From assembly GCA_002010075.1 (NCBI GenBank), contig MTMG01000013.1, positions 72,796-136,795 on the forward strand: a DNA stretch of 64,000 bases. The letters are read 5' to 3'. Shown here piece after piece: positions 28,355 to 57,648 of this stretch; position 1 is the first letter of the stretch; each line of letters begins with the position of its first letter. The notes beneath the pieces were generated by a model that was not told the DNA's origin, made no database searches, and was given only the letters and a program-made list of their open reading frames with translations. This DNA comes from Methanomicrobia archaeon JdFR-19 (lineage in GTDB: Archaea; Halobacteriota; Methanosarcinia; DSM-18856; Methermicoccaceae). Position numbers and translations under genes: made by a program.

Positions 28355-30547
28355 ATGTCCATCAGAAGGTTCTACGAGAGACTTGGCATATTCGTGGAGG
28401 GTCATGGCAGACTGATAATCGTATGTGCCATTCTTCTCTTCATATTCTCCTTGTTAATGGCTCAACAGATAGAATTTGCAACTGGCACCGATACATTTGT
28501 TGACAAGGACTCTCGCATATACCAGGACTATCAGCACCTCTATCTCGAAAATTTCAGGACAGACTCATTGGTTGTGATGGTTTCGTCTGATGATGTAACA
28601 TCTCCAGAAGTCCTGGAAGCGATGGATTCGCTCGAGAACTACATCAGAGAAGTTGAACACGTGATTTCTGTGTCGAGCATAACTGATTATGCGAAGCAGA
28701 TGAATGTGCAGAGGAGTGGCATTTCCGAGATAGGCAATCGTCAGACGTACAAGCGAGTTCTGAGTCAGTTCTATGGGACACCGTTGTTGCCGAACAAGAA
28801 CAACGCATTCATTTTCATCGAAATAGAGTCAGATCTAACAACTGACCAGCAGGAGGAGATTCTGAACCAGATTCAGCAGAGGATAGACTTCATGGACCTT
28901 CCCCCATCCACCACAATGGTGCTGACAGGTGAGACAGCGTTCAATCTTGAACTTCAGGGCGAGATGTCTAAGACACTTGGAACCACAATGGCTATCGCGG
29001 CTCTTTTGATGGTTGTCATACTCACACTCGTTTTCAGGTACGTCAGATGGTATTTCCTTCCCTTCATCATAATCATCATCGCCCTTATCTACACATTTGG
29101 ACTCATGGGATTTCTCGATATTAAGATGACGATGGTTTCCATGGCCATCTTCCCGATTCTGTTGGGTCTCGGTCTCGATTATGCAATTCAGTTTCACAAC
29201 CGCATCGAGGAAGAACTCAAAAGAAGGGAGGACAGGAAGGAGGCGGTGTATTACACTGTTGGAAGAACCGGGCCCGCAGTTGCAATCGCCCTCACAATCA
29301 CAGCCTTCGGTTTTTCAGCTCTTCTCACATCTCCAGTTCCGATGATAAGGGGATTCGCCATGATGGGCATAGTCGGAATAGTTGTATGTTATCTGACCGC
29401 TCTGTTCGTAGGAGTGTTCATCATATACGAACTCGATAGAAGATGGATTAAAAAACACGGAATAAACAGAGAGAACAAAAGAAACAAAAAAGTGAGTAGG
29501 GTAGATAATAAGGTAAGTAAAGTAAAAATATCAGATATCACGATGTGGACTGCAAAACGTCCCTTTGCCATTCTCAGCATTGCTCTCCTTCTCGGTGGAA
29601 TCGGCTTCTATTATGATGAGAAGGTTGATGTGCAGACCGATGTGAGGGAATACGTCCCTCCTGATTTGGATTGTCTGCTCGAGTTCAAAAAGATGGAGAG
29701 CCTGATGGGAGGAAGGACAGACTACATGGTCGTTCTCGTGAGGGGAGATATAGACTCTGAGACACAGAGGTGGATGGAAGACTTTGGGAAACACGAGGTT
29801 GAACTCAATCCACACATCCACTCCTACCACACAGCTTCAGCAGAGGGTAATACACTTGCAGCCATCTATCTGGACATAGGGGATGCGTATGCAGAGCTGG
29901 GTCTATCGGGGACAAAGGAGCTCTCACAACAGATATACGATGACTTGCAATGGCTCCCACCACCTCCTGGCATAACAGCCACTTTAACGGGAGACATGTA
30001 CCTTTTCACAATCGTTCTCGATGCTCTCACGAGCGGTAGGGTTGAGATGACGGTCTTCGGTCTGTTTCTCATATTCCTTGCTCTTCTCGTGATATACAGA
30101 AACCTGAAAAAGGCTCTTGTTCCCGTAATTCCAATGATAATCGTGACGGGATGGAGTGGTGGGCTGATGTATTTTGCAGGAGTACCGTACACCCCACTGA
30201 CTGCAACCCTCGGTGCTCTCATTCTTGGCATTGGTGGTGAGTACACAGTTCTGATGATGGAGAGGTATTATGAGGAGAGGGAAAATGGTCTCGATCCCTA
30301 TGAGGCGATGAAGGAGGCAACAACCAAAATCGGGAGAGCAATTCTCGCATCTGGTTTGACAGTTCTCTTCGGCTTCTCAGCCCTCATCACCTCATCCTTC
30401 CCGATGCAGTCGAACTTCGGTCTTGTCACCGTGATGGACATGACCTTCGTGATTCTTGCAACCTTTTTGATATTCCCACCCCTGATAGTGACGCTTGACA
30501 GATTGGGCGAATTCAGAGGGCGACATATACTGAAATCCAAATTCTGA
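28355..30547 (+). CDS. RND-superfamily exporter (MMPL/HAE3-like, two SSD-type 6-TM bundles)
   Basis: 730 aa, TM-periplasmic-TM-periplasmic-TM architecture. Lys-rich linker around 29440-29560. Confidence 0.8.
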   Translation: MSIRRFYERLGIFVEGHGRLIIVCAILLFIFSLLMAQQIEFATGTDTFVDKDSRIYQDYQHLYLENFRTDSLVVMVSSDDVTSPEVLEAMDSLENYIREVEHVISVSSITDYAKQMNVQRSGISEIGNRQTYKRVLSQFYGTPLLPNKNNAFIFIEIESDLTTDQQEEILNQIQQRIDFMDLPPSTTMVLTGETAFNLELQGEMSKTLGTTMAIAALLMVVILTLVFRYVRWYFLPFIIIIIALIYTFGLMGFLDIKMTMVSMAIFPILLGLGLDYAIQFHNRIEEELKRREDRKEAVYYTVGRTGPAVAIALTITAFGFSALLTSPVPMIRGFAMMGIVGIVVCYLTALFVGVFIIYELDRRWIKKHGINRENKRNKKVSRVDNKVSKVKISDITMWTAKRPFAILSIALLLGGIGFYYDEKVDVQTDVREYVPPDLDCLLEFKKMESLMGGRTDYMVVLVRGDIDSETQRWMEDFGKHEVELNPHIHSYHTASAEGNTLAAIYLDIGDAYAELGLSGTKELSQQIYDDLQWLPPPPGITATLTGDMYLFTIVLDALTSGRVEMTVFGLFLIFLALLVIYRNLKKALVPVIPMIIVTGWSGGLMYFAGVPYTPLTATLGALILGIGGEYTVLMMERYYEERENGLDPYEAMKEATTKIGRAILASGLTVLFGFSALITSSFPMQSNFGLVTVMDMTFVILATFLIFPPLIVTLDRLGEFRGRHILKSKF

Positions 30548-30584
30548 TTTTAACAAATTCTATCCTTCTTTCGCATTCTAAACC

Positions 30585-31094
30585 ATGATTGTTGAGGGAG
30601 TCGTACTCAGAATAGGCGAGCCAAACTCGAACGGATGGCTGATACCAGAGGAGGAAGCTGATGGGGTGATTGAGTCCCTCCCCTCAACTCCCCTCACCCT
30701 CTCATCAAAAGACCACATGAACGAAAGGGTGGTTGGAACGGTCGTGGATGCATGGAGGGAAGGGGATAGGGTAGTCGTGAGAGCAGAAGTGAGCGACACC
30801 GAGGTGAGGGACATGATGCTCAGGGGGGAACTTCCAAGGGGATGGTCGATCAATGCAAAGGGAGATGTCTCAAACGGTGTTGCCCGCGACATAGAAATCG
30901 ACACCCTCACAATCGTTAAAAATCCAGCATACAAGGAGGCTGAGTTCAGAATGGTGGAAAACAAGGAAGAAATTAGAGACAAAAGTGAAAATAAAACTGA
31001 AAATGAGAAGAAAAAGGATTTCGATATAGAAATCGAATCCTATGGGCTAACGGTTGGATACTACGACAGAGAAAGTGGAAAATGGATTGCGTGA
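30585..31094 (+). CDS. HK97-family prohead protease-like protein (Peptidase S78/U35-like)
   Basis: Pattern PLTLSSKDHMNERVVGTVVDAW..GDRVVVRAEVSD...GELPRGWSI resembles the U35 consensus (PLL.nHd...iG.v....edgL.v...). Charged KE-rich tail. Confidence 0.5.
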   Translation: MIVEGVVLRIGEPNSNGWLIPEEEADGVIESLPSTPLTLSSKDHMNERVVGTVVDAWREGDRVVVRAEVSDTEVRDMMLRGELPRGWSINAKGDVSNGVARDIEIDTLTIVKNPAYKEAEFRMVENKEEIRDKSENKTENEKKKDFDIEIESYGLTVGYYDRESGKWIA

Positions 31095-31104
31095 GGTGGT
31101 TTGA

Positions 31105-31572
31105 ATGTGGAACAAAGGAAACAAGGTTGTGCTTGCCGGCTCCCCAATCGTCGAGGAGATGAAGATGGGCTCGAACGCAACCCAGTCAGATATGGTACCT
31201 GGGCGCCTTGTGGTGAGAGACACGTCTGATGAGAGTGTGAAGGAAGCACCTGCCAACACAACCCAGCCAGCTGGCTGGATCGGATACGAGCAATCACACC
31301 CAGCACATCGCCCCTCAGACAGAACCACCGCATACTCCTCAGGTGCCTACATTCCAGTTCTGAGGGGACCGGGAGTTGTCCTCATATCAGAGATTACATC
31401 CTCTTCGATAACAAAAGGGGACCTCCTCGTGAGTGCGGGTAATGGAAAACTAACAAAGGCAACGTTTGACGCAACCACCAATTCGCTTCAGTACGTGGCA
31501 GTCGCGATAGCACTTGAAACAGTCGACGCATCCACTGTCGATAAGGAATGTGTTGTGATGAGTTTGATTTGA
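31105..31572 (+). CDS. Hypothetical protein between protease and capsid genes (decoration, scaffold or cargo candidate)
   Basis: 155 aa, Thr/Ser-rich. The only evidence is its position in a head-module-like array. Confidence 0.4.
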   Translation: MWNKGNKVVLAGSPIVEEMKMGSNATQSDMVPGRLVVRDTSDESVKEAPANTTQPAGWIGYEQSHPAHRPSDRTTAYSSGAYIPVLRGPGVVLISEITSSSITKGDLLVSAGNGKLTKATFDATTNSLQYVAVAIALETVDASTVDKECVVMSLI

Positions 31573-31585
31573 TGGGGTGATGTGA

Positions 31586-32416
31586 ATGATACTTTCGCCC
31601 GAACATTATCGAAAATTGAGAGAAGATGTTGTGATAGCAGCAAGAAGAGCAAACGTTGCTAGAAAACTCATGGCAATCAGGGGACCACTTGGTCTTGGGG
31701 TACAACAGTACAGCTATGATGTGCTGGGGGAGGTTGCAAATGCCATACTTTCCCATGTGTTCGAGGCAAGAGACATGGATGTTGTCAATCTCACTCGCAC
31801 AGATGTGAATGTTCCAGTACTTCAGAAGATGTTCGAGATTTCGAGGAGGGATGTTGAATCCTCGCGGAGATATGGAATACCACTCAATACCGCACTGGCA
31901 TCATCGTGTGCATACAAGATATCCTGTCTCGAGAATGAACTCTCTCTGGTCGGATGGGAGAAGGACAGCTCATACGACATCAAGGGACTTTACAGCTCTG
32001 CTGGGAACTCAATCACCGGCTCGGATTTCGGAACCGCAGGAAATGCCATAACGAGTGTGGCTGATGCGATGGGTACCCTGATGGAGGACGAAGTCTTCCC
32101 ACCATACAATTTGGTGCTACACCCAACCCAGTACGCAGAGCTTGTTGGAAACGTTCTCACCTCTGGGGACAGAGAGATATCTCACGTAAAGGAGATGATT
32201 GGTGGTGAGGTGGTGGTGACACCCTTCATCTCAGATGGCACTGGGATGTTGCTGGCAACTCCTGAAGCAAGGTTCTTCGAACTCGTCGTCGCCCAAGACC
32301 TCACGGTTGAGACATGGGAGGACCCAGATACCAAAAACCTGAGAGGCAGAGTGTTCGAGTGTGTTGTGCCTGTGGTGTATGATGCGAATGCGATATGCAA
32401 GCTGACAAGCATTTGA
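31586..32416 (+). CDS. Encapsulin / HK97-fold major capsid protein (Linocin_M18-like)
   Basis: 276 aa. Its C-terminal half (PYNLVLHPTQYAELVG...TPFISDGTGMLLATPEARFFELVVAQDLTVE...PVVYDANAICKL) follows the encapsulin family pattern. Confidence 0.7.
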   Translation: MILSPEHYRKLREDVVIAARRANVARKLMAIRGPLGLGVQQYSYDVLGEVANAILSHVFEARDMDVVNLTRTDVNVPVLQKMFEISRRDVESSRRYGIPLNTALASSCAYKISCLENELSLVGWEKDSSYDIKGLYSSAGNSITGSDFGTAGNAITSVADAMGTLMEDEVFPPYNLVLHPTQYAELVGNVLTSGDREISHVKEMIGGEVVVTPFISDGTGMLLATPEARFFELVVAQDLTVETWEDPDTKNLRGRVFECVVPVVYDANAICKLTSI

Positions 32417-32429
32417 TTGAGGTGTCTGG

Positions 32430-32780
32430 ATGGCTACATACGATGACGTGGTTGCACTCACAGGCACACCTCTTTCACAGAGCGAGGTCGAGGACCTGAT
32501 AGCAATCGCAGAGGAAGAGATAGACTCGGTGCTTTCGAGGGAGGGGATTTCCTTGTCTTCACAAGAATCCCCACCCCACATATACCTTGCCACGCTCTAT
32601 CTCTCCTCTGCCCTCGTCCTCGAAAGAGAGATGCCAGACTCGATACGGCTCGGAGACCTCTCAGTTTCAAACAGCAGAGCAGAATCATACCGTAATTTGG
32701 CGTATAAACTCCTCAGGGAATACGTTTCGATGGTCTCTGAAAGGTGTGTTCTAACACTCGTGTCTTCGGATGAAGAGTAA
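32430..32780 (+). CDS. Putative head-tail connector (gp6-like) protein
   Basis: 116 aa. Its N-terminal region (TPLSQSEVEDLIAIAEEEIDSVL) resembles the gp6-like head-tail connector family. It sits immediately downstream of the capsid gene. Confidence 0.4.
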   Translation: MATYDDVVALTGTPLSQSEVEDLIAIAEEEIDSVLSREGISLSSQESPPHIYLATLYLSSALVLEREMPDSIRLGDLSVSNSRAESYRNLAYKLLREYVSMVSERCVLTLVSSDEE

Positions 32781-32794
32781 GGGGATGGGATGAT

Positions 32795-32968
32795 GGATGG
32801 AGTGAAAGGTCCTCTGTGGATGCCAGAGGGAAGTGTGAGGGCAATACTTGCCATAGTGGTTGTGGTCTTTTCGTTGATTACGGTGATTAGGGAAGGTGAA
32901 ATTCCCCAGTCGCTGTTGGGGATACTGGGCATGGTGATGGGATTCTACTTTGGAGTGAGGAAGTGATA
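32795..32968 (+). CDS. Small membrane protein, 57 aa (holin-like candidate), not in the ORF track
   Basis: ATG-initiated frame MDGVKGPLWMPEGSVRAILAIVVVVFSLITVIREGEIPQSLLGILGMVMGFYFGVRK with two hydrophobic helices. It is below the 60-aa track cutoff. Confidence 0.3.
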
Positions 32969-33277
32969 GTATGGAGAGCACATGCGAAACACTCAGTCTG
33001 GTCGAATTACGGGCAGATGTAAAGGAACTGAGAAATCTGGTTGATATGCTGTATGAGAGGAGGAATGGAAGTGGAAGACCATGACCTCCTCATCGAGCTG
33101 AAAAAGGACATAGAGTACATAAAGGCAAAACTGAGGATGTTGTGTGAGTGTGATTCACATCTGGAGGAGAGGATGAGGACAATCGAGCAGAGATATGCAT
33201 ACATCATGGGTGTGGCTTGTGCAATCGCTTTTGTTGTCTCTCTTCTCGTCAATTGGATGGGCAATTGAGGGATAATC

Positions 33278-33601
33278 ATGATGGAAAGACTGGAGAGCTG
33301 GGCAAAAACACTCATAAACAGATTCGGCACCCAGATGACTCTCCGAAGGGTGTCATCAATCTCCTACAACGAATATGACGAGGCTGAGTATACGTATGAT
33401 GAAACAGATGTGAGAGTGCTGGTGGGGGCAAAGAAGCGAACGTTTGTTCGGAAGGAGGATGGCCTTCATGAGGCTGTGTATGTGAAAGCGGTCTTGGAGA
33501 AAGATGTCGATGTGGGAAAGGGTGATAGATTGGGAGAATGGGTAGTTGAAAGTGTAGAGGAGCATTCCTGCTTCAAGACTCTGATTCTGGTGGCTGAATG
33601 A
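33278..33601 (+). CDS. Hypothetical protein (virus-like region)
   Basis: 107 aa ORF with no family recognised. Confidence 0.4.
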   Translation: MMERLESWAKTLINRFGTQMTLRRVSSISYNEYDEAEYTYDETDVRVLVGAKKRTFVRKEDGLHEAVYVKAVLEKDVDVGKGDRLGEWVVESVEEHSCFKTLILVAE

Positions 33602-33696
33602 GAAACTTTTATCGCAAAATATATTAAGAAATTTCTTGTTTTCAGTTAAAATTACACCGGATTGAAATTACAACCGGATTATGGAAAAGAAATAAA
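33602..33696. repeat. Intergenic region with the direct repeat ACCGGATT twice, 7 nt apart, flanked by AT-rich sequence
   Basis: ...acACCGGATTgaaattacaACCGGATTatgg..., upstream of the 33697 gene. It could be an operator-like repeat or an att remnant. Confidence 0.3.
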
Positions 33697-34506
33697 TTGA
33701 ATGAAATCGGAGAATGTGGGATGGGAGTCAGACTCGGCATATACTACAACGGCTCTTTTGGTGAACGGTTTGTGGCAAATCTCGTGAATTATCCGTACTC
33801 ATGTGCTTCCTTTGGGGCGTGCGGTGTGGAATACTGCACACATTGTAAGCACTATTCGTATTCACGAGATATAGTGGGTGTGGTTGAGATGGAGGATCCA
33901 GAAGGGATGCCTGAATTTCTGGATGATTTGGACTATCCAGTTCAGAAGATGGAAGCCGATGTTATCGTTGCGATACATATGCATCCTGACATACTTCTGA
34001 CTCTTCCAGAAAATGTGTCTGCAGACGCCCTCATCGTTCCAATAGAAGGGAAATGGTACCCGAGGGGTGTGATAACCGAGCTCGAAAGAAAGTGTGAGAA
34101 AATGGGTATGGAGTTTTCAGCACCCAAGCCATTCTGCATACTCAGGGAGAGAGAAGACACCCCAGTGATAAACGAGTTCATAAAACATTTCAGAATAGGA
34201 TATCCGAAGTTCAGAATACACAATAGCATAGAGGTACTGAGAAGTGAGCCGTGTGGTGCTGCATGGTTTGTTGCAACCCGACTGAGACTGTCTGGACTGG
34301 ACTCAGATATCAGAGAACTGTGGAACAGGGTGTCTGAGGCACATCACAGTTTTCCCTGCACCGCAACCATGGAAAAGGATGAGGAGTACGGAGACAGTCT
34401 GTTGCACGTTGCAGGGTACGTTCTCAGACACGCAATCGATGAGGCAATCGGGTATGAGGGGGATGAGGAGATACCAGATAAACTGAAGGAGATAGTACTC
34501 TGGTAA
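33697..34506 (+). CDS. Cys-rich hypothetical protein (possibly DUF166/COG1810-like)
   Basis: 269 aa with CASFGACGVEYCTHCKHY and additional Cys/His clusters. TTG start in the track. Confidence 0.5.
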   Translation: MNEIGECGMGVRLGIYYNGSFGERFVANLVNYPYSCASFGACGVEYCTHCKHYSYSRDIVGVVEMEDPEGMPEFLDDLDYPVQKMEADVIVAIHMHPDILLTLPENVSADALIVPIEGKWYPRGVITELERKCEKMGMEFSAPKPFCILREREDTPVINEFIKHFRIGYPKFRIHNSIEVLRSEPCGAAWFVATRLRLSGLDSDIRELWNRVSEAHHSFPCTATMEKDEEYGDSLLHVAGYVLRHAIDEAIGYEGDEEIPDKLKEIVLW

Positions 34507-34510
34507 ATAA

Positions 34511-35077
34511 TCACACAATCGGCATTCTCACCATTACATCCTTCGAATTCCTTCTCATTACCACATACAAATCGAAGGCGTTATGGGTTGCATATCCCTC
34601 GGCTGTTATTCGGAGGGCAATTCTCTCGCCCTGCTCAACTCTCATGGCGGATATGTTTATCCAGTACGGAAATGCAACCGTGATGGAGCCACTTCCCCCA
34701 AAATCGAAGATGTGCTGATGGCATATGAATCCTCCCTCCACCTCCTCTGAACCATCATCCATGATCTTCACAATATCCACACTGGGTGTTATATAGGCAG
34801 TCCCATCACTTCCTGTGTTCTGACACATGAGAGTTATCCATCCACACACAACACCATCCACCACATAAACATCTGCAGGTGTGAAGGGATATAGTACATC
34901 CGCTGTTCCAACATCCCCCCAACTAGTCGGGATATGCCCCAATTCATCGTATTCCTCTATGTCAGCATATTCGTGTGTTGAGAGGGAAGTGAGAATGTGG
35001 TAATACAGAGAGCCACCCCACTCAAATGCGTCTTTGAACTTCACTCCTCTTAACTCGATAACGTTCCTGCTTATCAT
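34511..35077 (-). CDS. Hypothetical protein (virus-like region, minus-strand module)
   Basis: 188 aa with no family recognised. Confidence 0.45.
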   Translation of the reverse strand: MISRNVIELRGVKFKDAFEWGGSLYYHILTSLSTHEYADIEEYDELGHIPTSWGDVGTADVLYPFTPADVYVVDGVVCGWITLMCQNTGSDGTAYITPSVDIVKIMDDGSEEVEGGFICHQHIFDFGGSGSITVAFPYWINISAMRVEQGERIALRITAEGYATHNAFDLYVVMRRNSKDVMVRMPIV

Positions 35078-35081
35078 TAGC

Positions 35082-35435
35082 TCACCCCGTATTCACCGTA
35101 TACTCTCCCCACTTCTCCCGGCTCTGGTATTCAGCGACAGCTCTTGCGAGTGTCTCACCATCAAGGTTGATTGTGATGGGCTGCGGCTCGATTTTTATTG
35201 TTATGTTGTTGGACTCACCGTTTACGTTGGTTGGTTTTACCGAGGATTTTACTGGGAGGAATGTGATGGCAGGATAATCAGAAGTATCTGTGATTTTTAA
35301 GCCCGATAAAATCGGTTTTATTCTGTCCACTGTTTTCAGGATTTCCACGCTCTGATTTATACTGTGGTTTGTTGTGTGTTCTATGTTGTGTGCCATGATG
35401 TACCACACCTTCCTGATTTTATCTATGTTGATCAC
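35082..35435 (-). CDS. Hypothetical protein (virus-like region)
   Basis: 117 aa. GTG start that overlaps the upstream stop. Confidence 0.4.
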   Translation of the reverse strand: MINIDKIRKVWYIMAHNIEHTTNHSINQSVEILKTVDRIKPILSGLKITDTSDYPAITFLPVKSSVKPTNVNGESNNITIKIEPQPITINLDGETLARAVAEYQSREKWGEYTVNTG

Positions 35436-37024
35436 CTCTCCTCAACCCCCCTTCGGATACGTGGGTCCACATGAGCCTGGTTGACGATGTCTTCGAAGCC
35501 GTCTCCTCCTACGAGAAGGGGAACCATCACGAAATAATCGATGTTCACGTCGTAGTCGGTTGTGGATGTTGTTCTTATCACAATGGTGTCGTTCACATCA
35601 CCGTCATCAAATTGAACATCGAGATAATGATATCCCAAATCAGTGGATGGATTCACGGTCGAGGATGAGACTGTGGTGGCATCAGTGGTATTCTCCACAG
35701 ATATCACACACTCCGAACCCGTCTCACCGCTCAATCTGAATATGGCTTTCCATGTCCCTTTCTTCAAACTCGATAAGGTTCCCCAGTTCCACTGCCAGTA
35801 CTCCCCGTTATTGCGCAGAGAAATTCCCTGGGAATTCGAGTATGAGGGGTTGTCTGATATGAAACCGGTTGCTGTCCCACTACAACTCGTAGACTCTGCT
35901 TCGGTGAATAGGTCAGATGTGTTATAGGATTCTGGAACGAAGGCACCGAAGTAGCATGGAGAGTTCCACTGCCACACTGCTCGCCACTTTCCCTCAGTAG
36001 AGTTAGCCCACTGCAAAGAAGCCTCGCCCCCCCTCACAAATATCTGGATTTCGGAGGATGAGGGGTCAAAGAACGCAGCCCAGCTGGTGGTCTTGAAAGC
36101 CTCTGGCATGAGTTCAGCATCTTCCAAATACCCCTGTCCTCTGTACCCGAATCTGTGGTACGGATAAACGTGTTTTGCATAAGAGATGTAGGCGAGAGGC
36201 TTACCCCTCCACATCTTGATGGTTCTTACATTTCCAGATACCGTGATGTTGAGTTCTGCGTAATCTGGCGAAAATGATATGATTTCAGGCGAGGAGTACG
36301 CCCCCTCCAGATGGATGTCATGACTGAGTGATGTCCATGCACCATCATACACATATCCTGCAATGGTGTCTGAGGAAAGTGAACCAACCCCCAGTTTGTA
36401 TATCCCGTTCTCGATGGCTGGATTCCCTGAGAAGTTGTGGGAGGTTGAATAGACTCGGTCGGAACCGTCGAAGATTTTCACCTCCCCAACGTTCACCTCC
36501 TCTCCATCGAGTTCGTATCTGGCTGTCTGGGATTTCACCAGTGTGATTGTTCCGTCTGATGTGGTTCTTGTGATGGTTGGCTCGGTTCCGATGTATTTCG
36601 CACCCACGGGCAGTGGAATGTAACAGTAGTCGGTCGAATATCCCTCATCCGCAACCGGATAGGCTTTTAGAATCGTTCTGTACAGATGGGAGGGAAGGAA
36701 CATTCCCTTTATTCTCGATACGATGATATTTCCAGTCTCACGAAACTCGATATCTGAGACCGCCAGATACCCATCCCGGTTAGCATAACTAATTTTATTA
36801 TAGGAAGCGTCTCTCAAAACCGTCAGCAGGTCTTCCTTGTAATCCCGGGCAGTCTTCCCGCTGGTTGGATACAATATGGCTTCAAGCTCCACTTCCCTCA
36901 CATTGGAGGGAAACGATACCACCACTGGCTGGTTGAGACCCAGAGCTCTGAACTGAATGAGTTTCTGGGACTGGACTTCGTCGAACCGGGTGATTGCAGG
37001 TACGTATATCTCACCTATGTGCAT
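35432..37024 (-). CDS. Large structural protein, tail or tail-fibre-like candidate
   Basis: 530 aa, Ser/Thr/Gly/Tyr/Trp-rich and beta-rich in composition. It is the largest gene in the structural-looking array. Confidence 0.4.
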   Translation of the reverse strand: MHIGEIYVPAITRFDEVQSQKLIQFRALGLNQPVVVSFPSNVREVELEAILYPTSGKTARDYKEDLLTVLRDASYNKISYANRDGYLAVSDIEFRETGNIIVSRIKGMFLPSHLYRTILKAYPVADEGYSTDYCYIPLPVGAKYIGTEPTITRTTSDGTITLVKSQTARYELDGEEVNVGEVKIFDGSDRVYSTSHNFSGNPAIENGIYKLGVGSLSSDTIAGYVYDGAWTSLSHDIHLEGAYSSPEIISFSPDYAELNITVSGNVRTIKMWRGKPLAYISYAKHVYPYHRFGYRGQGYLEDAELMPEAFKTTSWAAFFDPSSSEIQIFVRGGEASLQWANSTEGKWRAVWQWNSPCYFGAFVPESYNTSDLFTEAESTSCSGTATGFISDNPSYSNSQGISLRNNGEYWQWNWGTLSSLKKGTWKAIFRLSGETGSECVISVENTTDATTVSSSTVNPSTDLGYHYLDVQFDDGDVNDTIVIRTTSTTDYDVNIDYFVMVPLLVGGDGFEDIVNQAHVDPRIRRGVEER

Positions 37025-37135
37025 TTCTCATCCTCTCCCTATTCATGATTTCGAGTATTCGTGTGATTCTCACGAAGTCCTCCTCAGCCATCTCGTCTAT
37101 TTCAGAAGGAGTCCATCCGAACTCACGCATGAGCA

Positions 37136-37576
37136 TCACTTCCGTGATTTCTTCTGATGGTTCTTTTCCTCGCAGAGCCCGTTTGATGTGCCTGACCCAT
37201 TCCTTTTCGTGGTATCGATATAACGAGACAAAAAATCCTCACAAGTCCCTCCAAGTGCACGCCTGCTGTTGTTGTAGTGGTACCAGAACTCTTCTTCATT
37301 CAGATTCTCGATTTCCTCTGGACTCATCCCGGTAGAGAGCATGATCGTGCCAGCATACATGAGTTCCTCCACCTCATCAGAAAAGTCGGCAAGTGCATCC
37401 CTGTCCTCTTCTACCTTCTCCTTTATTTTTTCTGGAAGTTCATCTGGGTTGATATTTCCGAAGTACTTCAGAATAATTCTTTTGTATAGTTTCCTGAGAA
37501 CTTTTACATCCTTATGAATGGGATTTCTTCTGTAATCCATACTCATACACCTCATGAGATATTTATCGATTTGCAA
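37136..37576 (-). CDS. Hypothetical protein (virus-like region)
   Basis: 146 aa, acidic helical N-terminal part and basic C-terminal tail. Confidence 0.35.
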   Translation of the reverse strand: MQIDKYLMRCMSMDYRRNPIHKDVKVLRKLYKRIILKYFGNINPDELPEKIKEKVEEDRDALADFSDEVEELMYAGTIMLSTGMSPEEIENLNEEEFWYHYNNSRRALGGTCEDFLSRYIDTTKRNGSGTSNGLCEEKNHQKKSRK

Positions 37577-38436
37577 GGCAGACTTTCCAATGTGGTCTCC
37601 ACCAAGTCATCTGGTGTGAAGTCCCCATCGAAATACGGGAAGGCAACTTCTTCCACACCTATCGTTTTATCACCAACGCTGGCAACCAGATCCCTCTTTG
37701 TGAGGCTCGTTATATCACTCAACATGTCCAGACTTGCGAAGTCCATTGTCAACCCCACCACTATATCCCGCTTGGTGGGAACGAGTCCGACTATTTTGGT
37801 GGATGTTGTTGCATCCACATCCTTCACGATTTTGAGTTCGTAGTCCACCCTGATGGAGAATTCTCTGACGTAGTCGCTGATTGCCTCACCCCCCAGCGTC
37901 AGAGACGTCAGGTCATCCCACTTCAGCACCGAGGTGTATGGGGAAGCGTGGCTTCCAGCCCCTATGTAATCCGTGTCCGAATATCCAGAGAAGTCTGCCC
38001 CCACCAGTGTGAAATCAAGGGATGCGACATCGTCTTCTCTGAATGTCAGAGTTGCACTCTTCACCACACAGCCTGCATACTTGCCGAAGTGTTTTGTGCC
38101 CCCGACATCCACGATATGTCCTATCGAGATCGATGGGAGGGAGTCGTCCGTACCAGATGCACTGCCCAGCACATGAGAAGCCCACCATGTCAGGTCGTTG
38201 GGCTTTATGCTCATCGCCAGCTCTATCTCCTGCCCTGTTTTCTCGACTGTCAGACTTTCGAGTGCCTCCTCACCATTCGCCCTCAGATATCTTACGTCCT
38301 GTGAAAGCGTTCGAATCGTGGGAGTAAACCGTTCGACAAGACCGAACCACTGCATCGTTGGGTCAGTTGGGAAGACGCCAAACGATGTCTCATCCACGTA
38401 TTCAACAGGCTGGTTTCCGATTATCATCTCATGCAC
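37552..38436 (-). CDS. Structural protein, major capsid or major tail candidate
   Basis: 294 aa. It sits directly after a coiled-coil scaffold-like gene, following the portal-scaffold-capsid order. Confidence 0.4.
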   Translation of the reverse strand: MHEMIIGNQPVEYVDETSFGVFPTDPTMQWFGLVERFTPTIRTLSQDVRYLRANGEEALESLTVEKTGQEIELAMSIKPNDLTWWASHVLGSASGTDDSLPSISIGHIVDVGGTKHFGKYAGCVVKSATLTFREDDVASLDFTLVGADFSGYSDTDYIGAGSHASPYTSVLKWDDLTSLTLGGEAISDYVREFSIRVDYELKIVKDVDATTSTKIVGLVPTKRDIVVGLTMDFASLDMLSDITSLTKRDLVASVGDKTIGVEEVAFPYFDGDFTPDDLVETTLESLPCKSINIS

Positions 38437-38731
38437 CTCCGTACTGGGTTATGAGTTCGTCAATTCTTTCGAGTTCTGACTGGATATTCTCGATTCTCTG
38501 CTGGATTACTGATGTTAGTTGAGACTTCGTCTCGTCCGATAACCTTGAATTGAGAATAAGGCTCTTTTCAGATTTCAGGTCGTCCAGATGATTCTGGAGA
38601 GTTTCCTTCTTCGTGTTCAGATACTCCAAAACATCCTTGGTACTCATCACCGTTTTGAGAAGGGACTCGAGCGATTGGGCATAATTTTTGAGATAATCTA
38701 ACTCAATTTTTATCATGTCAAGCTCCTCCAC
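38429..38731 (-). CDS. Coiled-coil protein (scaffold-like)
   Basis: 100 aa with heptad-rich sequence (LESLLKTV...LQNHLDDLKSEK...IENIQSELERIDELI). Confidence 0.4.
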   Translation of the reverse strand: MEELDMIKIELDYLKNYAQSLESLLKTVMSTKDVLEYLNTKKETLQNHLDDLKSEKSLILNSRLSDETKSQLTSVIQQRIENIQSELERIDELITQYGGA

Positions 38732-39127
38732 TCAAACACCTCCTTCAATAAAATGAACTTTGAATTCCACAATCCTGCAATTCGGACTTTTCTCCCTGTT
38801 TGATGTGTTGGCTATGGTGTAGCCAAGTTCTGCACTCAGAAGAAGTTGCACAACAGAATCCGCCAGTTCATCCCTCTGTTTCACAGTGTTTGACCAGACC
38901 TTCACCTTTACATGGGCAACGAACTCACTGAGAACAAGTCCATCCTCGAGGTCTCTGTAGTGTTTGGTGTTCACAATTTCCCCTTCAACCGTTATCATGG
39001 GATACATCGGTTCATGGGAATGGTATGCTGTGAAGATCCACGAGTCTCCAGCCACATTCGGGTCATTGGGATTCGTAAGATTCTCTCTCAGGTAATCCCT
39101 TACCGTGAGTACAACATCCTCCAACAT
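38732..39127 (-). CDS. Hypothetical protein (virus-like region)
   Basis: 131 aa. Its TGA stop abuts the GTG start of the scaffold-like gene. Confidence 0.4.
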   Translation of the reverse strand: MLEDVVLTVRDYLRENLTNPNDPNVAGDSWIFTAYHSHEPMYPMITVEGEIVNTKHYRDLEDGLVLSEFVAHVKVKVWSNTVKQRDELADSVVQLLLSAELGYTIANTSNREKSPNCRIVEFKVHFIEGGV

Positions 39128-39214
39128 CCTGAATGAGGTTGGAGGAGGGATAGAAAATGCTAAATCAGAAAAGTTGAGGGGAATAAAAAGAGAGGATATT
39201 GTGTTAGACTCGCA

Positions 39215-39493
39215 TCATCTTATCTCAAACCTTTTCCTATCAAGCAGTTCCTGTTTCTTTGCCTCGTTCCAGCCACTCACATCTTGGAGATATCCCGTTA
39301 TCCGAGAAATGGGCAGGACGTTGTGCGAACCACATTCCGGACAGTAGAACTCACCACATACCGGACAGACATGTATCCCAGAAATGGGTTTCATGCACGA
39401 ACCATGCTCGCGGGCATACTCCCTGACGGGGCAGTTGTCAGGCGTGTATTTAAACTCACTCTTGATAGCCTTCTCAATGACTTCTTGAAGCAT
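39215..39493 (-). CDS. Stand-alone NrdD-like C-terminal domain: zinc ribbon plus glycyl-radical motif
   Basis: CPVCGEFYCPECGSH ... SRITGYLQDVSGWNEAKKQELLDRKRF parallels the class III RNR C-terminus (CxxC...CxxC, RV(C/T)GY(L/S), WN.GK..E..DR) in only 92 aa. Confidence 0.6.
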   Translation of the reverse strand: MLQEVIEKAIKSEFKYTPDNCPVREYAREHGSCMKPISGIHVCPVCGEFYCPECGSHNVLPISRITGYLQDVSGWNEAKKQELLDRKRFEIR

Positions 39494-39534
39494 GAAAGTG
39501 AATTGACTCCAATTCTACTTAAATGTTAGGATGT

Positions 39535-40614
39535 TTAAATATTAAGAGGGTCGAATCTCATTTCCACCCCCTCATCGTATCCCCATGCTCTCATCTGTGG
39601 GATGAGGACATCTCTCTCGAACACTCTTTTGATTTGGCGTTGCATCGACATCAGAACGTTCAGTCTGTCTTTCTCTGAAACGTAGGAAGATGCGTAGGTT
39701 GAGCCTCTTGCCTTTCCGGTTGTAATCTCTGACTGGAGGAGAGCTATTGCGATGTCTCTTTCCAAGCTCTCCTTGAGTCCGAGAATGTCGGTTGCTCCTG
39801 TGGTTGGAGTCAAAGGCTTCACCTCGAATCCCACCCCCACAATGTCCTCGTTCTGTTCAAGCTTCTGCATCTCCTCTTTCACATCGTCCAGCACTTTCTT
39901 TATCTCCTCGAATCTTCCTTCGTGCAGAAGTGGTTCAAGAGCCTTCATATCGATGTGAAGCCTTCCCATTCCGTATCTTCTGACAGCTTTTGTGAATCCT
40001 TCGAGCAAATCGAGTTTGTACTTCACGATTCTGTCTATGGGGTCGAGGAGTGAGATACCATACAGACCAAGGGTAGTTCTTCCCATGATATCTGTGCATA
40101 CATTCCCCTCTGGAAAGAGGCGAAATAGTGCGAACTCGTCTCTGTTGAATACTGTGGGGACAGACTCCTCCTGAACAACCACTCTGTCCACCTTACCCTT
40201 CAGAACGTGTGTGGGAATCTCTTTCGGTCTCACTCCTTTGGGGAGGAGAGTGATGTACCTCATGGGGAGTGGAGTGAGTGAGGAAATAGTATCACCATCC
40301 CATTCGAGGTGGAGAACAACGGTTCCATCACGGGCAAGCAGTCTGGCAACTGTTGCAATCACGTGGTCGAGATTCACTCCCACAGCCCACTTTTCAAGCT
40401 CCTTCACACCACCACAGAACTCGAAGCCACTTGAGATTGTGAGACCCAGTTTCAGAAGTGAGGTTGCAACATAGGGGTCGATCTGGGAGAGCTGTTCGTA
40501 TCTGATGAAGCGGTTGGATGTGTCAAGGTAGAAGTTCCCCACTTTGTAGTCGTCCGGTGTGATTCTGGGTATTGCCGACAAAGAAGCCTGAATTCTTTTC
40601 TTTCTGAAGAACAT
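39535..40614 (-). CDS. Portal-like protein candidate (virus-like region)
   Basis: 359 aa. The evidence is weak: its size and its position at the head of a scaffold/capsid-like array. Confidence 0.35.
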   Translation of the reverse strand: MFFRKKRIQASLSAIPRITPDDYKVGNFYLDTSNRFIRYEQLSQIDPYVATSLLKLGLTISSGFEFCGGVKELEKWAVGVNLDHVIATVARLLARDGTVVLHLEWDGDTISSLTPLPMRYITLLPKGVRPKEIPTHVLKGKVDRVVVQEESVPTVFNRDEFALFRLFPEGNVCTDIMGRTTLGLYGISLLDPIDRIVKYKLDLLEGFTKAVRRYGMGRLHIDMKALEPLLHEGRFEEIKKVLDDVKEEMQKLEQNEDIVGVGFEVKPLTPTTGATDILGLKESLERDIAIALLQSEITTGKARGSTYASSYVSEKDRLNVLMSMQRQIKRVFERDVLIPQMRAWGYDEGVEMRFDPLNI

Positions 40615-40652: not shown

Positions 40653-41816
40653 TTATTTATATTTTCTCAGAACATCCTTCAACTCCCTCAGAAACTCTTC
40701 CACCGTTCTTTCAGAAACGTGGGGCATCATGACCATTCTTATTGCCTCACCCACAGTCGAGACATACCAGTTCCTTCTCATCAGCTCATTCTTCACATCC
40801 TCCGCCCTATCACATCTCACACACAGCACATTGCACACCGGCTCTATGACCGGCTCGAGTCCGAGCTCCTCACATCCCTCTTTCATGAGATGGGTTATAC
40901 GCATGCACTCCTTCACGATTTTCGTGTAACCATCCCATCCGAGATGTCTCATCACCGCATACGCACCCACAACAGAACCACCAGTTCTCGTTCCGGTGAG
41001 TGTGTATTGAGAGCGGTGGGTGAGGTAGGGGGTATCGACCGCCAGCCTATCCATCACGTTCTCTCTGAAAACAAGCACACCGCACGGAATGGTTGAGAAT
41101 CCCATCTTGTGTGGGTCTATCGAAACTGAACTGACACCCTTCACAAAACCCCAGTCTCTCCTTCCAAGAAATGGAAGGACAAATCCACCAAACGCAGCAT
41201 CCACATGCAGAAATATTCCTCTCTCCTCTGCAATCTTCCCCAACTCCTCGATTGGGTCAACCTGTCCGTACTCTGTTGTACATGCGATGCCAACTATTGC
41301 AAACGTGTTATCATCCACCAGACCCTCCACCTCTCCAACATCCACCTTCAAATCCTCATTGAGCGGAGCCTTCCTGACCTCAACACCCAAAAGGTCTGAA
41401 ATTTTATCAAAAGAGAAATGGGCACTCTCAGGAACCACAATATTTCCTTTTTCACCTTCGCTTCCTTTTTTATTTTCTTTCTTTGCAACCCTCATCGCCT
41501 GTATGTTGGATTCTGTTCCTCCAGTGGTTGCAAATCCCCATGTCTTCGAGTTGCCAGCAAGCTCCCCAACCCTCTTCACAACACACCCTTCTATCTATGA
41601 GGAAGCGGGAAACAGCCCCGGGTCTCCAAGGTTCGATTCCATGTAGAGGATGTGGGCTCTCACAGCAACCGGATGGGGTAAGGTGCACATCGAAGAAAGA
41701 ATTCTGGTGTAGGAGATGTCCCTCTCCTTCATCAGCGAAAGCACATACAACACGCTCTCATCTTTTTCGCCCTCTATGTTCCACACCTTCACACCTCCAA
41801 AAGCTCTGCTTCGCAC
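40653..41816 (-). CDS. mfnA: PLP-dependent L-tyrosine/L-aspartate decarboxylase (MfnA family), with an in-frame TAG at 41595..41597
   Basis: Track ORFs 41595..41816 (N-terminus ...SSMCTLPHP...NLGDPGLFPASS) and 40653..41579 (...TTGGTESNIQAM...SIDPHKMG with the PLP lysine) share a frame and are joined through TAG ATA GAA GGG TGT GTT GTG. Both halves align to MfnA. The N-terminal start is uncertain and overlaps the upstream gene. Confidence 0.8.
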
Positions 41817-51963: not shown

Positions 51964-53478
51964 TCACCTCCCTTCTAATGCCGCCTTATCGGCCCTCTTC
52001 ATAACCTCTTCCATGTCCTTCAGCACATCGCTGTCTATCGGAGCGACCTCATGCGTCTTGAGAATCTCATCGACCTTATCGCGTGCTGCCTGTGCAAGGT
52101 CCTTTCCGCCAAGGGACTGCCATGTCCCTCTCATGTTCCTGTCGATCAAGGTTGGGTTGGACTGAATGTTGATGAGGTCTCTTGTCTCATCCAGAGCCAA
52201 GAAGTCTCCGCCCGCTCCAACTGACTTGATGGAGTCTACAGCGAGTGTTGTCTCGTTCACTTCGATTCCCTCAACGACCATCCTTGCCATTCCAATGATA
52301 TCGTTGTCGATGACTATCTGCTCAGAGCTGACAGTCATACCAAGCTCGAGCATACCTGCTCCGTATATGCTGTTCGCACCTGCAAGTGCGGGTACGAGTG
52401 TTGTGATTGTCTTCTCATGACCTGCCTGTGCATCTGGGAGTTTGGAGTCGGTCTAAGTTCCAGCCACGTAGCTTGGCAAGTTGTAATACTGAGCCAGCTG
52501 TGCCACTGCTGCACTGATAAGTGCAAGCTCAGGCGAACCAACTGGTGCGGTTCCCTTTCTCAGGTCGAAAGCTGTTGTGGAGCTTCCATACCACACAGGA
52601 GCACCAGGGTTTGCAAGCTGGGACAGGACTATACCTGCCAAAACCTCAGCGTTGTGTGTCACGAGAGTGCCTGCAACATGCACCGGAGATGTCGCTCCTG
52701 CCATTGCCATGCTCAAAACGTTCACTGGCATCTCGTACTTTGCACCATATATTATGACCTTCACAGCGTTCTCGTGGAGTTGTAGTGGGCTTGTTGGACA
52801 GAGAAGCAACGAGAGTATTGGTCTCTTCCTTGCCAGCTCCTCATCTCCACCATAGAACGCCTTTACTACTTCCCAGTATGTGTCGATGCTGGTACCGACA
52901 GGGTCAATGTGCTGGAAGTGTTTGCTCGTACCCTTCAAGGATGCCATCAGTTCGTGTACGTCCTGCGCACCCTTGTCAGACCAGTCTCTTGCAGAGACCG
53001 TCAGGGAGAAGTAGTCAATGTTATCACACCAGTCTGTGACTATTGCGGTGTCGATGATGTCCTGCTCAACTGAGTCCCTGACAACCGGCTTGCCATCTTT
53101 GAATTCGAATACCTGTACACCGGTACCGAAGGTTGTCCAGTATACTTTGCCTCCTGCCTCCTGAATGAGGTCGTTCTCCTTGGTTCTGCCTGCCAGTAAG
53201 AATCTTGATGGGGCAGTCTGCAAAGCCTTCCTCACGACCCACTCAGGAATCTTCACCATCTGTGTCTCGTTGTCTACTTCACAGCCGTTTTCCTCGAACA
53301 CTTTTCTACCGAGTTCATCTGTGACGAGAACGCCTGTGTCTGTGAATACGTCCATGGTAGCTTGGTGTATCTCTCTTAATTCGCTCTTAGAGAAGAGTTT
53401 TAACCCAGCTCCATGAAGCTTCTCAACGCCTGCTTCTACATATTTTCTCATGTTTATCACGTAGGAAGTGTATGCCAT
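51964..53478 (-). CDS. mttB: Trimethylamine:corrinoid methyltransferase MttB, with in-frame TAG (pyrrolysine position) at 52453..52455
   Basis: Track ORFs 52453..53478 and 51964..52353 are in frame. The joined protein reads ...[55 protein letters not shown]... and is collinear with Methanosarcina MttB across about 500 aa. The TAG sits at the canonical Pyl site. Confidence 0.9.
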
Positions 53479-56437: not shown

Positions 56438-56854
56438 TCACCATTTCACACTCTCGAGAATCACAGCAGGACAAATCCTATTCACTCCATCCATTCTCGC
56501 TATTTTTTTGTGGATTTCAGACAATTCGTCGAGCGAGAAGGCAACAACCTAACTCATGATTGTGTGGTCTCCTGATGTCAGCATCACAATCTTCACCTCT
56601 TCCATTTCCCTCAGCTTTCTGATCACATCCCAGAGATGTTCAGGACCGACATCTATGCCCGTGAGGGAGGCAAACAGATTTTTGTAGTTCAGCATTGCAT
56701 TGTATCCGAGTATCACACCCTCCTTTTCCAGTTTTGTTATCCTCTTCCTGACCGCAGTCTCACTCAGTCCAAGCATCTTCGCTATCTTCGTCTTGGGGGT
56801 TCTTGCATCTCTCAGCAACATCGAAATGATTTTTCTGTCTCTTTCATCCATCAT
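56438..56854 (-). CDS. lrp: Lrp/AsnC-family transcriptional regulator, with an in-frame TAG at 56549..56551
   Basis: N-terminal HTH (KIISMLLRDARTPKTKIAKMLGLSETAVRKRITKLEKEGVI). After the TAG, the RAM domain continues VVAFSLDELSEIHKKIARMDGVNRICPAVILESVKW to a TGA. The TAG aligns with the conserved Lys of the GDYDLLLKVVA segment. Confidence 0.8.
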
Positions 56855-57617: not shown

Positions 57618-57648
57618 TATGAGGTTGTGAGAGAGGGAAAAGGGAGGT

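Follow-up and report, generated by a model that had tools for sequence, protein, structure and literature searches.

How did the head and tail genes of a virus come to lie in the chromosome of an archaeon with no terminase or integrase gene beside them, and what keeps them there? We analysed a 64,000-nucleotide stretch of the genome of Methanomicrobia archaeon JdFR-19 (family Methermicoccaceae; contig MTMG01000013.1, positions 72,796 to 136,795), referred to here as the window. Within it, positions 30585-40614 (~10 kb) hold 15 virus-derived structural genes and a free-standing NrdD glycyl-radical domain. An earlier reading of these letters, the original prediction, had offered a decayed provirus, a particle system that is domesticated or resembles a gene transfer agent (GTA), or two unrelated insertions. 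We conclude that the block is probably one rearranged and selectively kept remnant of an undescribed archaeal tailed provirus, and a candidate domesticated particle system that is known from its genes alone.

Nearly all open reading frames (ORFs) of the original prediction were present at the coordinates given, and most of its identifications were upheld. The head genes lie on the plus strand and the portal and tail genes on the minus strand; the two modules had been called divergent and are in fact convergent (pointing towards each other). Both start 37-38 bp past host genes, with tight gene spacing. The flanks had been named correctly as an RND exporter and mfnA, for which Pfam returned an MMPL/RND-type exporter and an MfnA-like decarboxylase. 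None of the ~18 ORFs had been matched to cellular housekeeping families; a cellular DUF166 gene between the modules (33697-34506) had been overlooked. Loci used for comparison carry L numbers. The features of the block are as follows.

30585-31094, plus strand: capsid maturation (prohead) serine protease, 169 residues, from its AlphaFold2/Foldseek fold and viral homologues
31041-31091, plus strand: conserved C-terminal peptide of the protease, YGLTVGYYDRESGKWIA, a putative shell-binding peptide
31105-31572, plus strand: minor capsid/cement-like protein, 155 residues, from Pfam XM1_gp53_minor_capsid and Phage_cement
31586-32416, plus strand: major capsid protein of HK97 fold, Family-1-encapsulin-like, 276 residues, from Linocin_M18
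32430-32780, plus strand: head-tail adaptor-like protein, 116 residues, named by its conserved position only
32790-32966, plus strand: island-specific 58-residue protein with two predicted transmembrane segments, from hydrophobic stretches
33053-33268, plus strand: protein of ~71 residues with a C-terminal transmembrane segment, from viral homologues
33278-33601, plus strand: head-closure/stopper protein (connector), 107 residues, from a profile match; left unnamed in the original prediction
33697-34506, plus strand: cellular, non-viral DUF166 gene, probable start 33721 (PF02593, 1.4e-55)
34511-35077, minus strand: orphan 188-residue protein, no viral homologue
35082-35435, minus strand: orphan 117-residue protein at the end of the tail module, homologues only in L015 and L022
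35432-37024, minus strand: tail-tip/receptor-binding-like protein, 530 residues, named by synteny and a variable cassette only
35945-36412, minus strand: hypervariable cassette of the 530-residue protein, residues ~205-360 (~155 residues), from comparison with L015
37026-37235, minus strand: putative -1 frameshift extension of the chaperone (lambda G/GT-like), with slippery heptamer T_TTT_TTG at 37235-37229
37136-37576, minus strand: tail assembly chaperone-like protein, 134-146 residues, named by position and frameshift architecture only
37552-38436, minus strand: tail tube family protein, 291-294 residues, from Phage_tube_2
38429-38731, minus strand: island-specific coiled-coil protein, 100 residues, from weak coiled-coil Pfam matches
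38732-39127, minus strand: viral neck/tail-module protein, 131 residues, from viral homologues
39215-39493, minus strand: free-standing NrdD C-terminal domain, 92 residues, with zinc ribbon and glycyl-radical motif SRITGY
39535-40614, minus strand: portal protein, 359 residues, Portal_Mu 26.4 bits (cut-off 23.9)

All island proteins were compared with all ORFs of the viral loci. Thirteen island genes have homologues on the same viral contigs, at identities of 30-74% overall (protease N-terminus 41%, cement 54%, capsid 70-73%, adaptor-like 43-45%, tube 53-55%), and no viral homologue was found among these loci for the 58-, 100-, 117- and 188-residue proteins or DUF166. The viral loci L004, L005 and L030 carry the large terminase subunit (TerL), a portal (461 residues), MuF, a 434-residue protein, cement (171 residues), capsid, connectors, tube (294 residues), two small genes and a 1090-residue protein; L006 resembles the L004 type and has in addition a recognisable tape measure and a Prophage_tail gene. 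The order in L008-L012, from Methermicoccaceae metagenome-assembled genomes (MAGs), is TerL, a 406-427-residue protein, a 297-residue protein, capsid, connectors, portal (405 residues), MuF, neck protein, an NRDD gene (84-87 residues), tube (298 residues), genes for 149 and 60 residues, and a 585-residue protein. Neighbour-joining trees of capsid, portal and tube all placed the island as sister to L013 together with the L008/L012 viruses. Because the homologues of both modules occur on the same viral contigs (L008-L012, L004), are colinear there and share their tree placement, we conclude that both modules came from one virus, not two.

The source lineage is larger than these loci. Scanning IMG/VR with the capsid alignment gave 42 further viral contigs, many of them with the protease-scaffold/cement/capsid triad and many with a tube gene that follows the capsid gene at a distance of ~2.7 kb. 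The capsid and portal proteins had no tblastn match among GenBank phage records, and we therefore regard the lineage as undescribed; a literature search for Methermicoccus proviruses found none. Contigs identical to the window are present in metagenomes (L001-L003). A complete relative of the L004/L005 type co-occurs in the samples of the window genome (SRR3723048, JGI 3300037558), with a capsid protein 53% identical, and the type also sits on contigs of 0.2-1 Mb, thus integrated in some host.

A second remnant, from the same viral subfamily, was seen in L013 (1-7336; 60.5% GC), which has a capsid protein 74% identical to that of the island, lacks TerL and MuF, and carries its tube and neck genes inverted relative to head and portal. 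Its protease-scaffold is shortened to 237 residues, and a host histidine kinase gene lies directly beside its portal. We considered L013 as the orthologous island of a more distant host and rejected this, given its grouping with the L008 viruses in three trees and its GC content of 60.5%. Since it groups with these viruses, it is probably an independent event.

The convergent layout of the island may go back to one inversion. Un-inverting 33697-40614 restores the order MMPL, protease, cement, capsid, adaptor, 58-residue gene, 71-residue gene, stopper, portal, NRDD, 131-residue gene, 100-residue gene, tube, chaperones, 530-, 117- and 188-residue genes, followed by DUF166 and mfnA on the opposite strand. 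This order is colinear with that of the L008-type viruses, except for TerL, MuF and one small gene. A single inversion of 33697-40614, from DUF166 through portal, would thus have turned a colinear block into two convergent modules, and would have trapped DUF166, and probably the 188-residue gene, between them.

The two trapped genes have histories of their own. DUF166 has homologues ~50% identical in Archaeoglobi genomes, where the flanking DNA examined holds no homologue of an island gene, and it has no homologue in any viral locus compared. A word-indexed homologue search with the 188-residue protein returned only the query and the sister species described below. The distant relative L023 keeps the convergent DUF166/188-residue pair (70% and 75% identical, respectively) without an adjoining head module, and the dN (nonsynonymous divergence) of the 188-residue gene in this comparison (0.157) is close to that of DUF166 (0.165); the 188-residue gene is for these reasons probably cellular or long resident. 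The minus-strand module, first drawn as viral down to 34511, is viral in its tail genes and probably not in this last one. Upstream of DUF166, L023 has SOR and helix-turn-helix (HTH) genes in place of the head module. The SOR-like and HTH genes (L023 98-800) correspond to window 56441-56911 and 57647-57942, 22 kb from DUF166, which indicates chromosomal rearrangement around the locus between relatives.

Inheritance and selection were assessed against a sister species. Its contigs L014 and L015 match window 29039-33255 and 30236-36661 at 89.6% nucleotide identity, and neither flanks nor gene order differ; L015 is identical to L022 and represents the 'Methanosarcinales archaeon' MAG B74_G9, from Guaymas. 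The comparison covers the left 6.4 kb (30236-36661), and the stretch from portal to chaperone falls outside it. The ratio of nonsynonymous to synonymous divergence (dN/dS, Nei-Gojobori) ranged from 0.05 to 0.34 in 11 island genes, with 0.15 for the protease, 0.10 for cement, 0.05 for capsid, 0.07 for the adaptor, 0.18 for the 58-residue gene, 0.34 for the 71-residue gene (few sites), 0.14 for the stopper, 0.14 for the 188-residue gene, and 0.22 for both the 117- and the 530-residue genes. Host genes gave 0.08-0.16 (MMPL) and 0.07 (DUF166). Synonymous divergence (dS) was alike in island and host genes, at ~0.26-0.46 in the larger island genes, 0.12-0.13 in the two smallest and 1.25 in the 530-residue gene.

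Other measures of this divergence were consistent with selection on intact proteins. Indels within genes were multiples of three, and intergenic ones were not. The 339 substitutions had created no stop codon against ~10 expected, and zero was reached in 0 of 2000 random placements. Relative synonymous codon usage in the island correlated with that of host genes at 0.92, compared with 0.95 between two halves of the host genes and 0.48 and 0.71 for the nearest viruses. GC content shows no difference either (47.7% at 30.5-40.6 kb, 46.9% elsewhere in the window). The deletions and the rearrangement of the island are common to both lineages, and all measured divergence therefore arose after the terminase was lost. 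By this comparison, the left 6.4 kb was passed down vertically together with the host flanks, and purifying selection on it has matched that on neighbouring cellular genes in strength. Such a pattern marks a remnant that is being maintained rather than one in decay.

In a tblastn search of the window with four viral TerL proteins and every further ORF from the viral loci, matches fell only in 30585-40614, and none was to TerL. No TerL, small terminase subunit (TerS) or MuF was found across the 64 kb (tblastn; Pfam of large ORFs returned cellular families only), and no integrase (Pfam and PHROG scans, viral-ORF tblastn), so that the lack of terminase and integrase first noted for the block extends to the whole window. 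As first noted, no tRNA flanks the block, the nearest being 4 kb away, and a search for att-like direct repeats at the block edges was negative. Gone from the island are the terminase, MuF, the scaffold domain of the protease, the C-terminal tail of the portal, and the replication, integration and lysis functions. With all parts known to handle DNA or its packaging lost (TerL/TerS, MuF, portal C-terminus), either a terminase would be encoded elsewhere, as in a GTA-like system, or the particles would be free of DNA.

One of these losses lies in the protease gene. Its protease domain (residues 1-125; 30585-30959) had no match in Pfam, NCBIfam and PDB sequence searches, and a word-indexed homologue search with the 169-residue protein returned only the query and the sister species; an exhaustive HMMER search found 66 homologues. 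Single members of the family match Peptidase_S78 (7e-13), S78_2, S77 and Phage_scaffold. An AlphaFold2 model from a 57-sequence alignment reached a predicted local distance difference test score (pLDDT) of 86.9, and the top Foldseek matches in the PDB were the assemblins of human cytomegalovirus, Epstein-Barr virus and Kaposi's sarcoma-associated herpesvirus and T4 gp21 (5jbl), with probability 1.0 and TM score ~0.5. H44 and S88 are invariant or almost so in the family alignments. Fold and family matches thus agree with the S78/U35-like prohead protease that had been predicted. The new point is that its scaffold part has been excised: the island protein corresponds to ~135 residues at the start and ~15 at the end of viral proteins of 406-438 residues, and their middle ~270 residues, the scaffold portion, have been deleted in frame. 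In the viruses this middle holds coiled-coil and ChaB-like regions, with Phage_scaffold in some members.

Despite the internal deletion, the C-terminal end was spared. The motif SGLTVGxW...W is kept in all eight members of the protease alignment. Among the 67 remote homologues, roughly 30 end in a motif of the type x-[LFW]-[TS]-V-G-[RK]-[WF] by visual count, and 15 contain the stricter pattern G[LIVMF][TS][LIVM]G when scored by script. Targeting peptides of Family 1 encapsulins include LTVGSLRR and TVGSLIQ (PMC10960027). From this short match we infer that the protease ends in a shell-binding peptide, and the likeness may provide a sequence-level link between scaffold anchoring and encapsulin cargo targeting.

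The shell itself points in the same direction as the original prediction, which had named a Linocin_M18/HK97-fold capsid protein. It matches Linocin_M18 (3e-36, 125 bits) and Phage_capsid_4 (3e-6), and is 53-74% identical to the capsid proteins of the viral and remnant loci. In a search of the PDB with the profile of the capsid family, all 37 matches were encapsulins or the Pyrococcus furiosus virus-like particle, among them 9fy6 (7e-44), the Q. thermotolerans shell 6nj8 (1e-42) and M. xanthus EncA (4pt2/7s20, ~7e-41), over the full length. The capsid of this lineage best matches exactly those encapsulin shells whose targeting peptides resemble the LTVG-type end of the protease. Homologues in Methermicoccaceae MAGs carry the NCBI name 'family 1 encapsulin nanocompartment shell protein'. 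Given to capsid genes from complete tailed viruses (L008-L012, P0003-P0006), this name is probably a systematic misannotation, and one that misleads in the annotation of MAGs.

Around the capsid gene, the head module follows the viral arrangement. The cement-like protein (XM1_gp53_minor_capsid, 30 bits with a cut-off of 27; Phage_cement, 25 bits) has viral homologues that invariably lie between the protease-scaffold and capsid genes. The adaptor-like protein has no Pfam match, and its family profile no meaningful PDB match; in over 40 viral contigs a homologue lies directly 3' of the capsid gene. The prediction of a gp6-like connector at this place therefore stands as a conserved post-capsid gene, not as a specific gp6-like fold. 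The stopper, conserved in 39 viral loci, was recognised through its family profile (Pam3 connector 8hdr_A, 2.6e-9; weaker matches to stopper proteins at 0.05 and 0.29). The two tiny membrane proteins that had been noticed do have hydrophobic transmembrane stretches. Homologues of the 58-residue one were found only in L014, L015 and L022, with weak matches to PHROG families of unknown function; the ~71-residue one has homologues of 64-86 residues in L004 and L008-L013.

On the minus strand, the portal-like protein proved to be a portal: its Portal_Mu match is above the Pfam cut-off, and its profile matched portal proteins only in the PDB (best 4.9e-4). It is 60-61% identical to the 403-405-residue portals that precede MuF in L008-L011, aligns to their residues 16-371, and is without the C-terminal ~35 residues of its viral homologues. 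The 131-residue protein is 37-40% identical to proteins of 148-367 residues that lie between MuF and tube in L008-L011 and beside the tube in L013. What had been a 294-residue structural protein was identified as a member of the tail tube family (Phage_tube_2, 1.5e-13; phrog_290, 1.6e-11), 47-55% identical to homologues in L004, L008 and L013. The tube and 131-residue family profiles gave no meaningful PDB match. For the 100-residue coiled-coil protein we found no homologue in any viral or related locus compared, which leaves its description as scaffold-like unsupported.

Next to the tube gene, the chaperone-like protein is 44% identical to the 149-residue protein encoded 3' of the tube gene in L008. 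There is also an alternative-frame peptide, 74% identical to the 60-residue ORF of L008, which begins before any ATG and shares DNA with the 3' end of the chaperone gene. This architecture suggests that -1 frameshifting at T_TTT_TTG yields a tail chaperone pair of the G/GT type.

The 530-residue protein, predicted to be tail-like, is homologous over its full length (30%) to the 585-residue protein of L008, and its N-terminal parts are also homologous to the 1090-residue protein of L004. Both of these viral counterparts come after the tube and chaperone genes, as it does. It has no Pfam or NCBIfam match, its profile no PDB match, and a role as tape measure was rejected, the protein not being helical like one. 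Identity to L015 drops to 23-53% within the cassette, compared with 83-100% on both flanks, the dS of the gene (1.25) is above that of its neighbours (~0.3), and the frame stays open. This is a pattern typical of receptor-binding determinants. The start of the 117-residue gene overlaps the stop of the 530-residue gene. No long helical tape-measure-like protein follows the chaperone pair in the island (35432-38436), in L004 (15326-20085) or in L008 (17522-20752), and L006 has PhageMin_Tail.

Because an intact protease with its peptide, shell, portal, adaptor, stopper, tube, frameshifted chaperones and a variable tail tip have all been kept, continued particle assembly is probably the most likely current function of the island. 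The genes would be kept because their products still work together. In this mechanism, the protease with its shell-binding C-terminal peptide would be loaded into an encapsulin-like shell with a portal vertex. Adaptor and stopper would close the shell, a non-contractile tail built with the frameshifted chaperone pair would be attached, and the variable cassette of the tail end protein would set target specificity. DNA would be packaged by a terminase encoded elsewhere, as in a GTA-like system, or would no longer be packaged.

Several points weigh against this reading. The evidence for selection comes from one genome pair, both of them MAGs, and it covers 30236-36661 only, not portal through chaperone. 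With no terminase found within 64 kb, a GTA-type mechanism would be without its key enzyme. The island has no tape-measure candidate, which leaves tail assembly unexplained, and a single-sequence AlphaFold2 model of the 530-residue protein had a pLDDT of 38 and no usable fold. The 104-118-residue gene that viruses carry between stopper and portal is missing from the island. The neighbourhood seen in L023 is unexplained by the single-inversion model; the island is phylogenetically shallow, or further rearrangements happened. Finally, the particle itself has been deduced from gene content, and in this respect, too, the island differs from GTAs.

The likeness to GTAs is nevertheless substantial. 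As in the RcGTA-type systems of Alphaproteobacteria and the VTA of Methanococcus voltae, a chromosomal head-tail cluster without replication and integration genes is vertically inherited, under selection and equipped with a variable tail tip. GTA clusters encode their own large terminase (PMC5721377, PMC10883770, PMC7947584). The island, in contrast, has none within 64 kb, and is conserved to a sister species and not across a family or order. The original prediction of a GTA-like or domesticated particle system thus fits best as a domesticated provirus remnant, whereas 'GTA' is unsupported, its packaging enzyme missing from the window. We did not file the island as a GTA, no terminase having been found in the 64 kb, nor as an encapsulin system, since it includes portal and tail genes.

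A bolder claim, that the genes form a working particle without terminase, we consider unlikely. In it, an encapsulin-like shell would still bear a portal, a neck and a tail with a variable receptor-binding tip, and the maturation protease would be cut down to its catalytic domain and an encapsulin-type targeting peptide. If true, no domesticated head-tail particle, whether GTA-like or protein-delivering, would have been defined genetically before this one in an archaeon related to methanogens; or else the island would be a living intermediate between tailed virus and Family 1 encapsulin. As such an intermediate, it would make the scaffold's shell-binding peptide the ancestor of encapsulin cargo-targeting peptides.

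Among the other explanations, the one that survives best, though quite unlikely, is dependence on a helper. A complete related provirus or virus would supply the terminase, MuF and the remaining tail parts, and the island would be satellite-like or a store of spare parts, a cryptic prophage that complements. Suitable partners exist: the complete L004/L005-type relative, with TerL, portal and MuF, occurs in the same samples, integrated on 0.2-1 Mb contigs, and closer L008-type viruses occur in Methermicoccaceae MAGs. However, the L004 type has been placed with the island at the level of samples only, and its GC content and codon usage are unlike those of the window. Mixed assembly is doubtful at 53-70% capsid and 39-60% portal identity, and no integrase, excision, replication or pac/cos-type functions for mobilisation were found in the island. 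A phage satellite of the type of phage-inducible chromosomal islands or P4 was rejected as well, its integrase, replication module and helper-responsive regulation not having been found in scans of the window.

Antiviral interference has a slim chance of being the function. Truncated or divergent structural proteins would then poison the assembly of incoming related viruses, the candidates being the scaffold-less protease with its shell-binding tail, the portal without C-terminus and the capsid protein. Such a role would account for purifying selection without a packaging enzyme; the protease retains exactly the parts needed for entering a foreign procapsid, and related viruses live in the same environment. 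Yet adaptor, stopper, small membrane proteins and tail-tip gene are under selection too, and a kept frameshift site in the tail chaperone and a variable tail-tip cassette are hard to explain by interference alone. No defence genes were noticed nearby, though no PADLOC-type examination was made. 

That the island is an inert, decaying provirus fragment, in which disabling mutations have merely not yet accumulated, is improbable. TerL, MuF, integrase, replication and lysis genes are absent from the window, the portal and the protease-scaffold are shorter than in viruses, the gene order is rearranged, and the island is not beside DUF166 in distant L023, all of which would suit such a fragment. 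Against this, the island persisted across a species-level split (dS ~0.3) with dN/dS of 0.05-0.34, no indel inside a gene that breaks its frame and no stop codon where ~10 were expected. Its deletions, shared by both lineages, are older than the measured divergence, and its truncations are clean and in frame, sparing the catalytic residues and the terminal motif. Of the decayed provirus first proposed, the viral origin and the loss of terminase and integrase stand; the decayed state does not, the compared head and distal tail genes being intact.

A Family 1 encapsulin operon, in which the upstream protease would be a targeted cargo and the tail genes irrelevant neighbours, is very improbable. 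Its appeal lies in the shell: the Linocin_M18 score of 125 bits, the exclusively encapsulin and encapsulin-like P. furiosus PDB matches (best 7e-44), homologues named 'family 1 encapsulin' in Methermicoccaceae MAGs, and an upstream gene ending in an LTVG motif like known targeting peptides. But complete viruses have the same shell gene (53-74%) together with genes for TerL, portal, MuF and tail, and in the island adaptor and stopper genes come after it, with portal and tube genes also present. Purifying selection acts equally on the adaptor, stopper and distal tail genes (portal and tube lie outside the comparison). The supposed 'cargo' is a capsid maturation protease, and encapsulins are not known to carry cargo of that class. 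Two unrelated viral insertions that abut, an early proposal suggested by modules on opposite strands with a cellular gene between them, are hardly credible and were rejected: the closest homologues of both modules lie in adjacent parts of the same complete viral contigs at similar identity, their phylogenetic placement is identical, and one inversion gives back a single colinear block.

A domesticated remnant would have parallels among known systems. Bobay, Touchon and Rocha reportedly described in 2014 a pervasive domestication of defective prophages by bacteria. Like such prophages, the island is vertically inherited, lacks mobility and packaging genes, is under purifying selection and has a host-adapted composition. 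Unlike them, it is archaeal and comes from an undescribed source lineage, it keeps a nearly complete head-plus-tail module in place of isolated tail or lysis cassettes, and its conservation has been shown across one species-level split only. A tailocin was rejected, as the head genes are retained (capsid, protease, cement, adaptor, stopper, portal), all but the uncompared portal under purifying selection.

A 'fossil' HK97-like provirus is said to surround the gene of the Pyrococcus furiosus virus-like particle or encapsulin (Heinemann and colleagues, 2011, Virology 417:362). In both cases an archaeal chromosome holds an encapsulin-like HK97 shell gene in a provirus-derived context. In the island, by contrast, portal, connectors and tail genes are intact, the genes that could be compared are under selection, and living viral relatives are identifiable.

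The resemblance to Family 1 encapsulins (M. xanthus EncA and the T=4 shell of Q. thermotolerans; PMC8346489, PMC10960027) includes full-length homology of the shell (7e-44 to 1e-40) and an upstream-encoded protein that ends in an LTVG-type peptide, with the cement gene intervening before the shell gene. The island differs in that its shell gene stands beside portal, adaptor, stopper, tube and tail-tip genes, that the upstream protein is a maturation protease, and that its shell gene is most closely related to capsid genes from complete tailed viruses. Viral capsids with an encapsulin domain as their sole Pfam coat-clan signal have been described, and a parallel between procapsid scaffold and cargo has been proposed (bioRxiv 10.1101/2025.06.18.659913). 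The main encapsulin-enriched clade of that paper comes from the human gut and is without tail, portal and terminase genes; a Verdandiviridae MAG is also noted there. Unlike this clade, the lineage reported here is tailed, has portal and TerL, and is apparently archaeal. The match between scaffold and targeting peptide at the sequence level goes beyond that paper, in which it is undescribed.

These comparisons set out what the island may contribute. Prophage domestication is a known phenomenon, and what is new here is the archaeal host and the new viral lineage. Domesticated virus particles and GTAs are genetically well defined in bacteria and hardly so in archaea, for which the island offers a concrete, testable candidate. 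The source lineage is tailed, apparently archaeal and represented by more than 40 IMG/VR contigs, and its capsid is the closest relative of Family 1 encapsulins seen in the analysis. Together, the likeness of the capsid and of the protease end give the proposed transition between virus and encapsulin a sequence-level handle.

Beyond its flanks, the island is embedded in cellular genes. Every gene examined there is of cellular type (LUD/CCG, lysyl-tRNA synthetase, adenine deaminase, P-type ATPase, TrkA, CitMHS, ArsP, TBP and MttB), and these genes identify the host as an archaeon. The MfnA-like ORF (40653-41579) adjoins an in-frame TAG at 41595-41597 (minus strand) that is preceded by ~63 MfnA-like codons in the same frame as this 308-residue ORF. 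The MttB gene (52453-53478) spans only profile positions 31-337 of 500 and likewise seems interrupted. UAG may be read as pyrrolysine in this host; alternatively, mfnA may be a pseudogene.

Two short repeats were noticed. The 11-mer TTCTATCCYTC has exactly two copies in the 64 kb, at 30558-30568 and 39145-39155, both 25-30 nt upstream of island gene starts (protease and 131-residue gene). We rejected it as a signal: it came to notice post hoc, and its significance vanishes once one mismatch is permitted. A tandem direct repeat, GAAATTACA(A)CCGGATT x2, lies at ~33650-33690, just upstream of DUF166, and may be a regulator-binding site.

The free NrdD glycyl-radical domain had been recognised in the original prediction, and the match to Pfam NRDD (5.6e-14) covers the C-terminus of the profile (positions 508-562 of 562), with further matches to PHROG NrdD families. 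The domain shares 55% identity with 87-residue genes of L008, L009 and L011. The gene is moron-like, with its own AT-rich upstream region and a T-rich downstream spacer. Domains of this kind (84-92 residues) are kept within the structural modules at varying position (L008 16972-17235, L009 15435-15698, L011 12152-12415). By analogy with GrcA/YfiD, the domain may serve as a 'spare part' for an oxygen-damaged class III ribonucleotide reductase.

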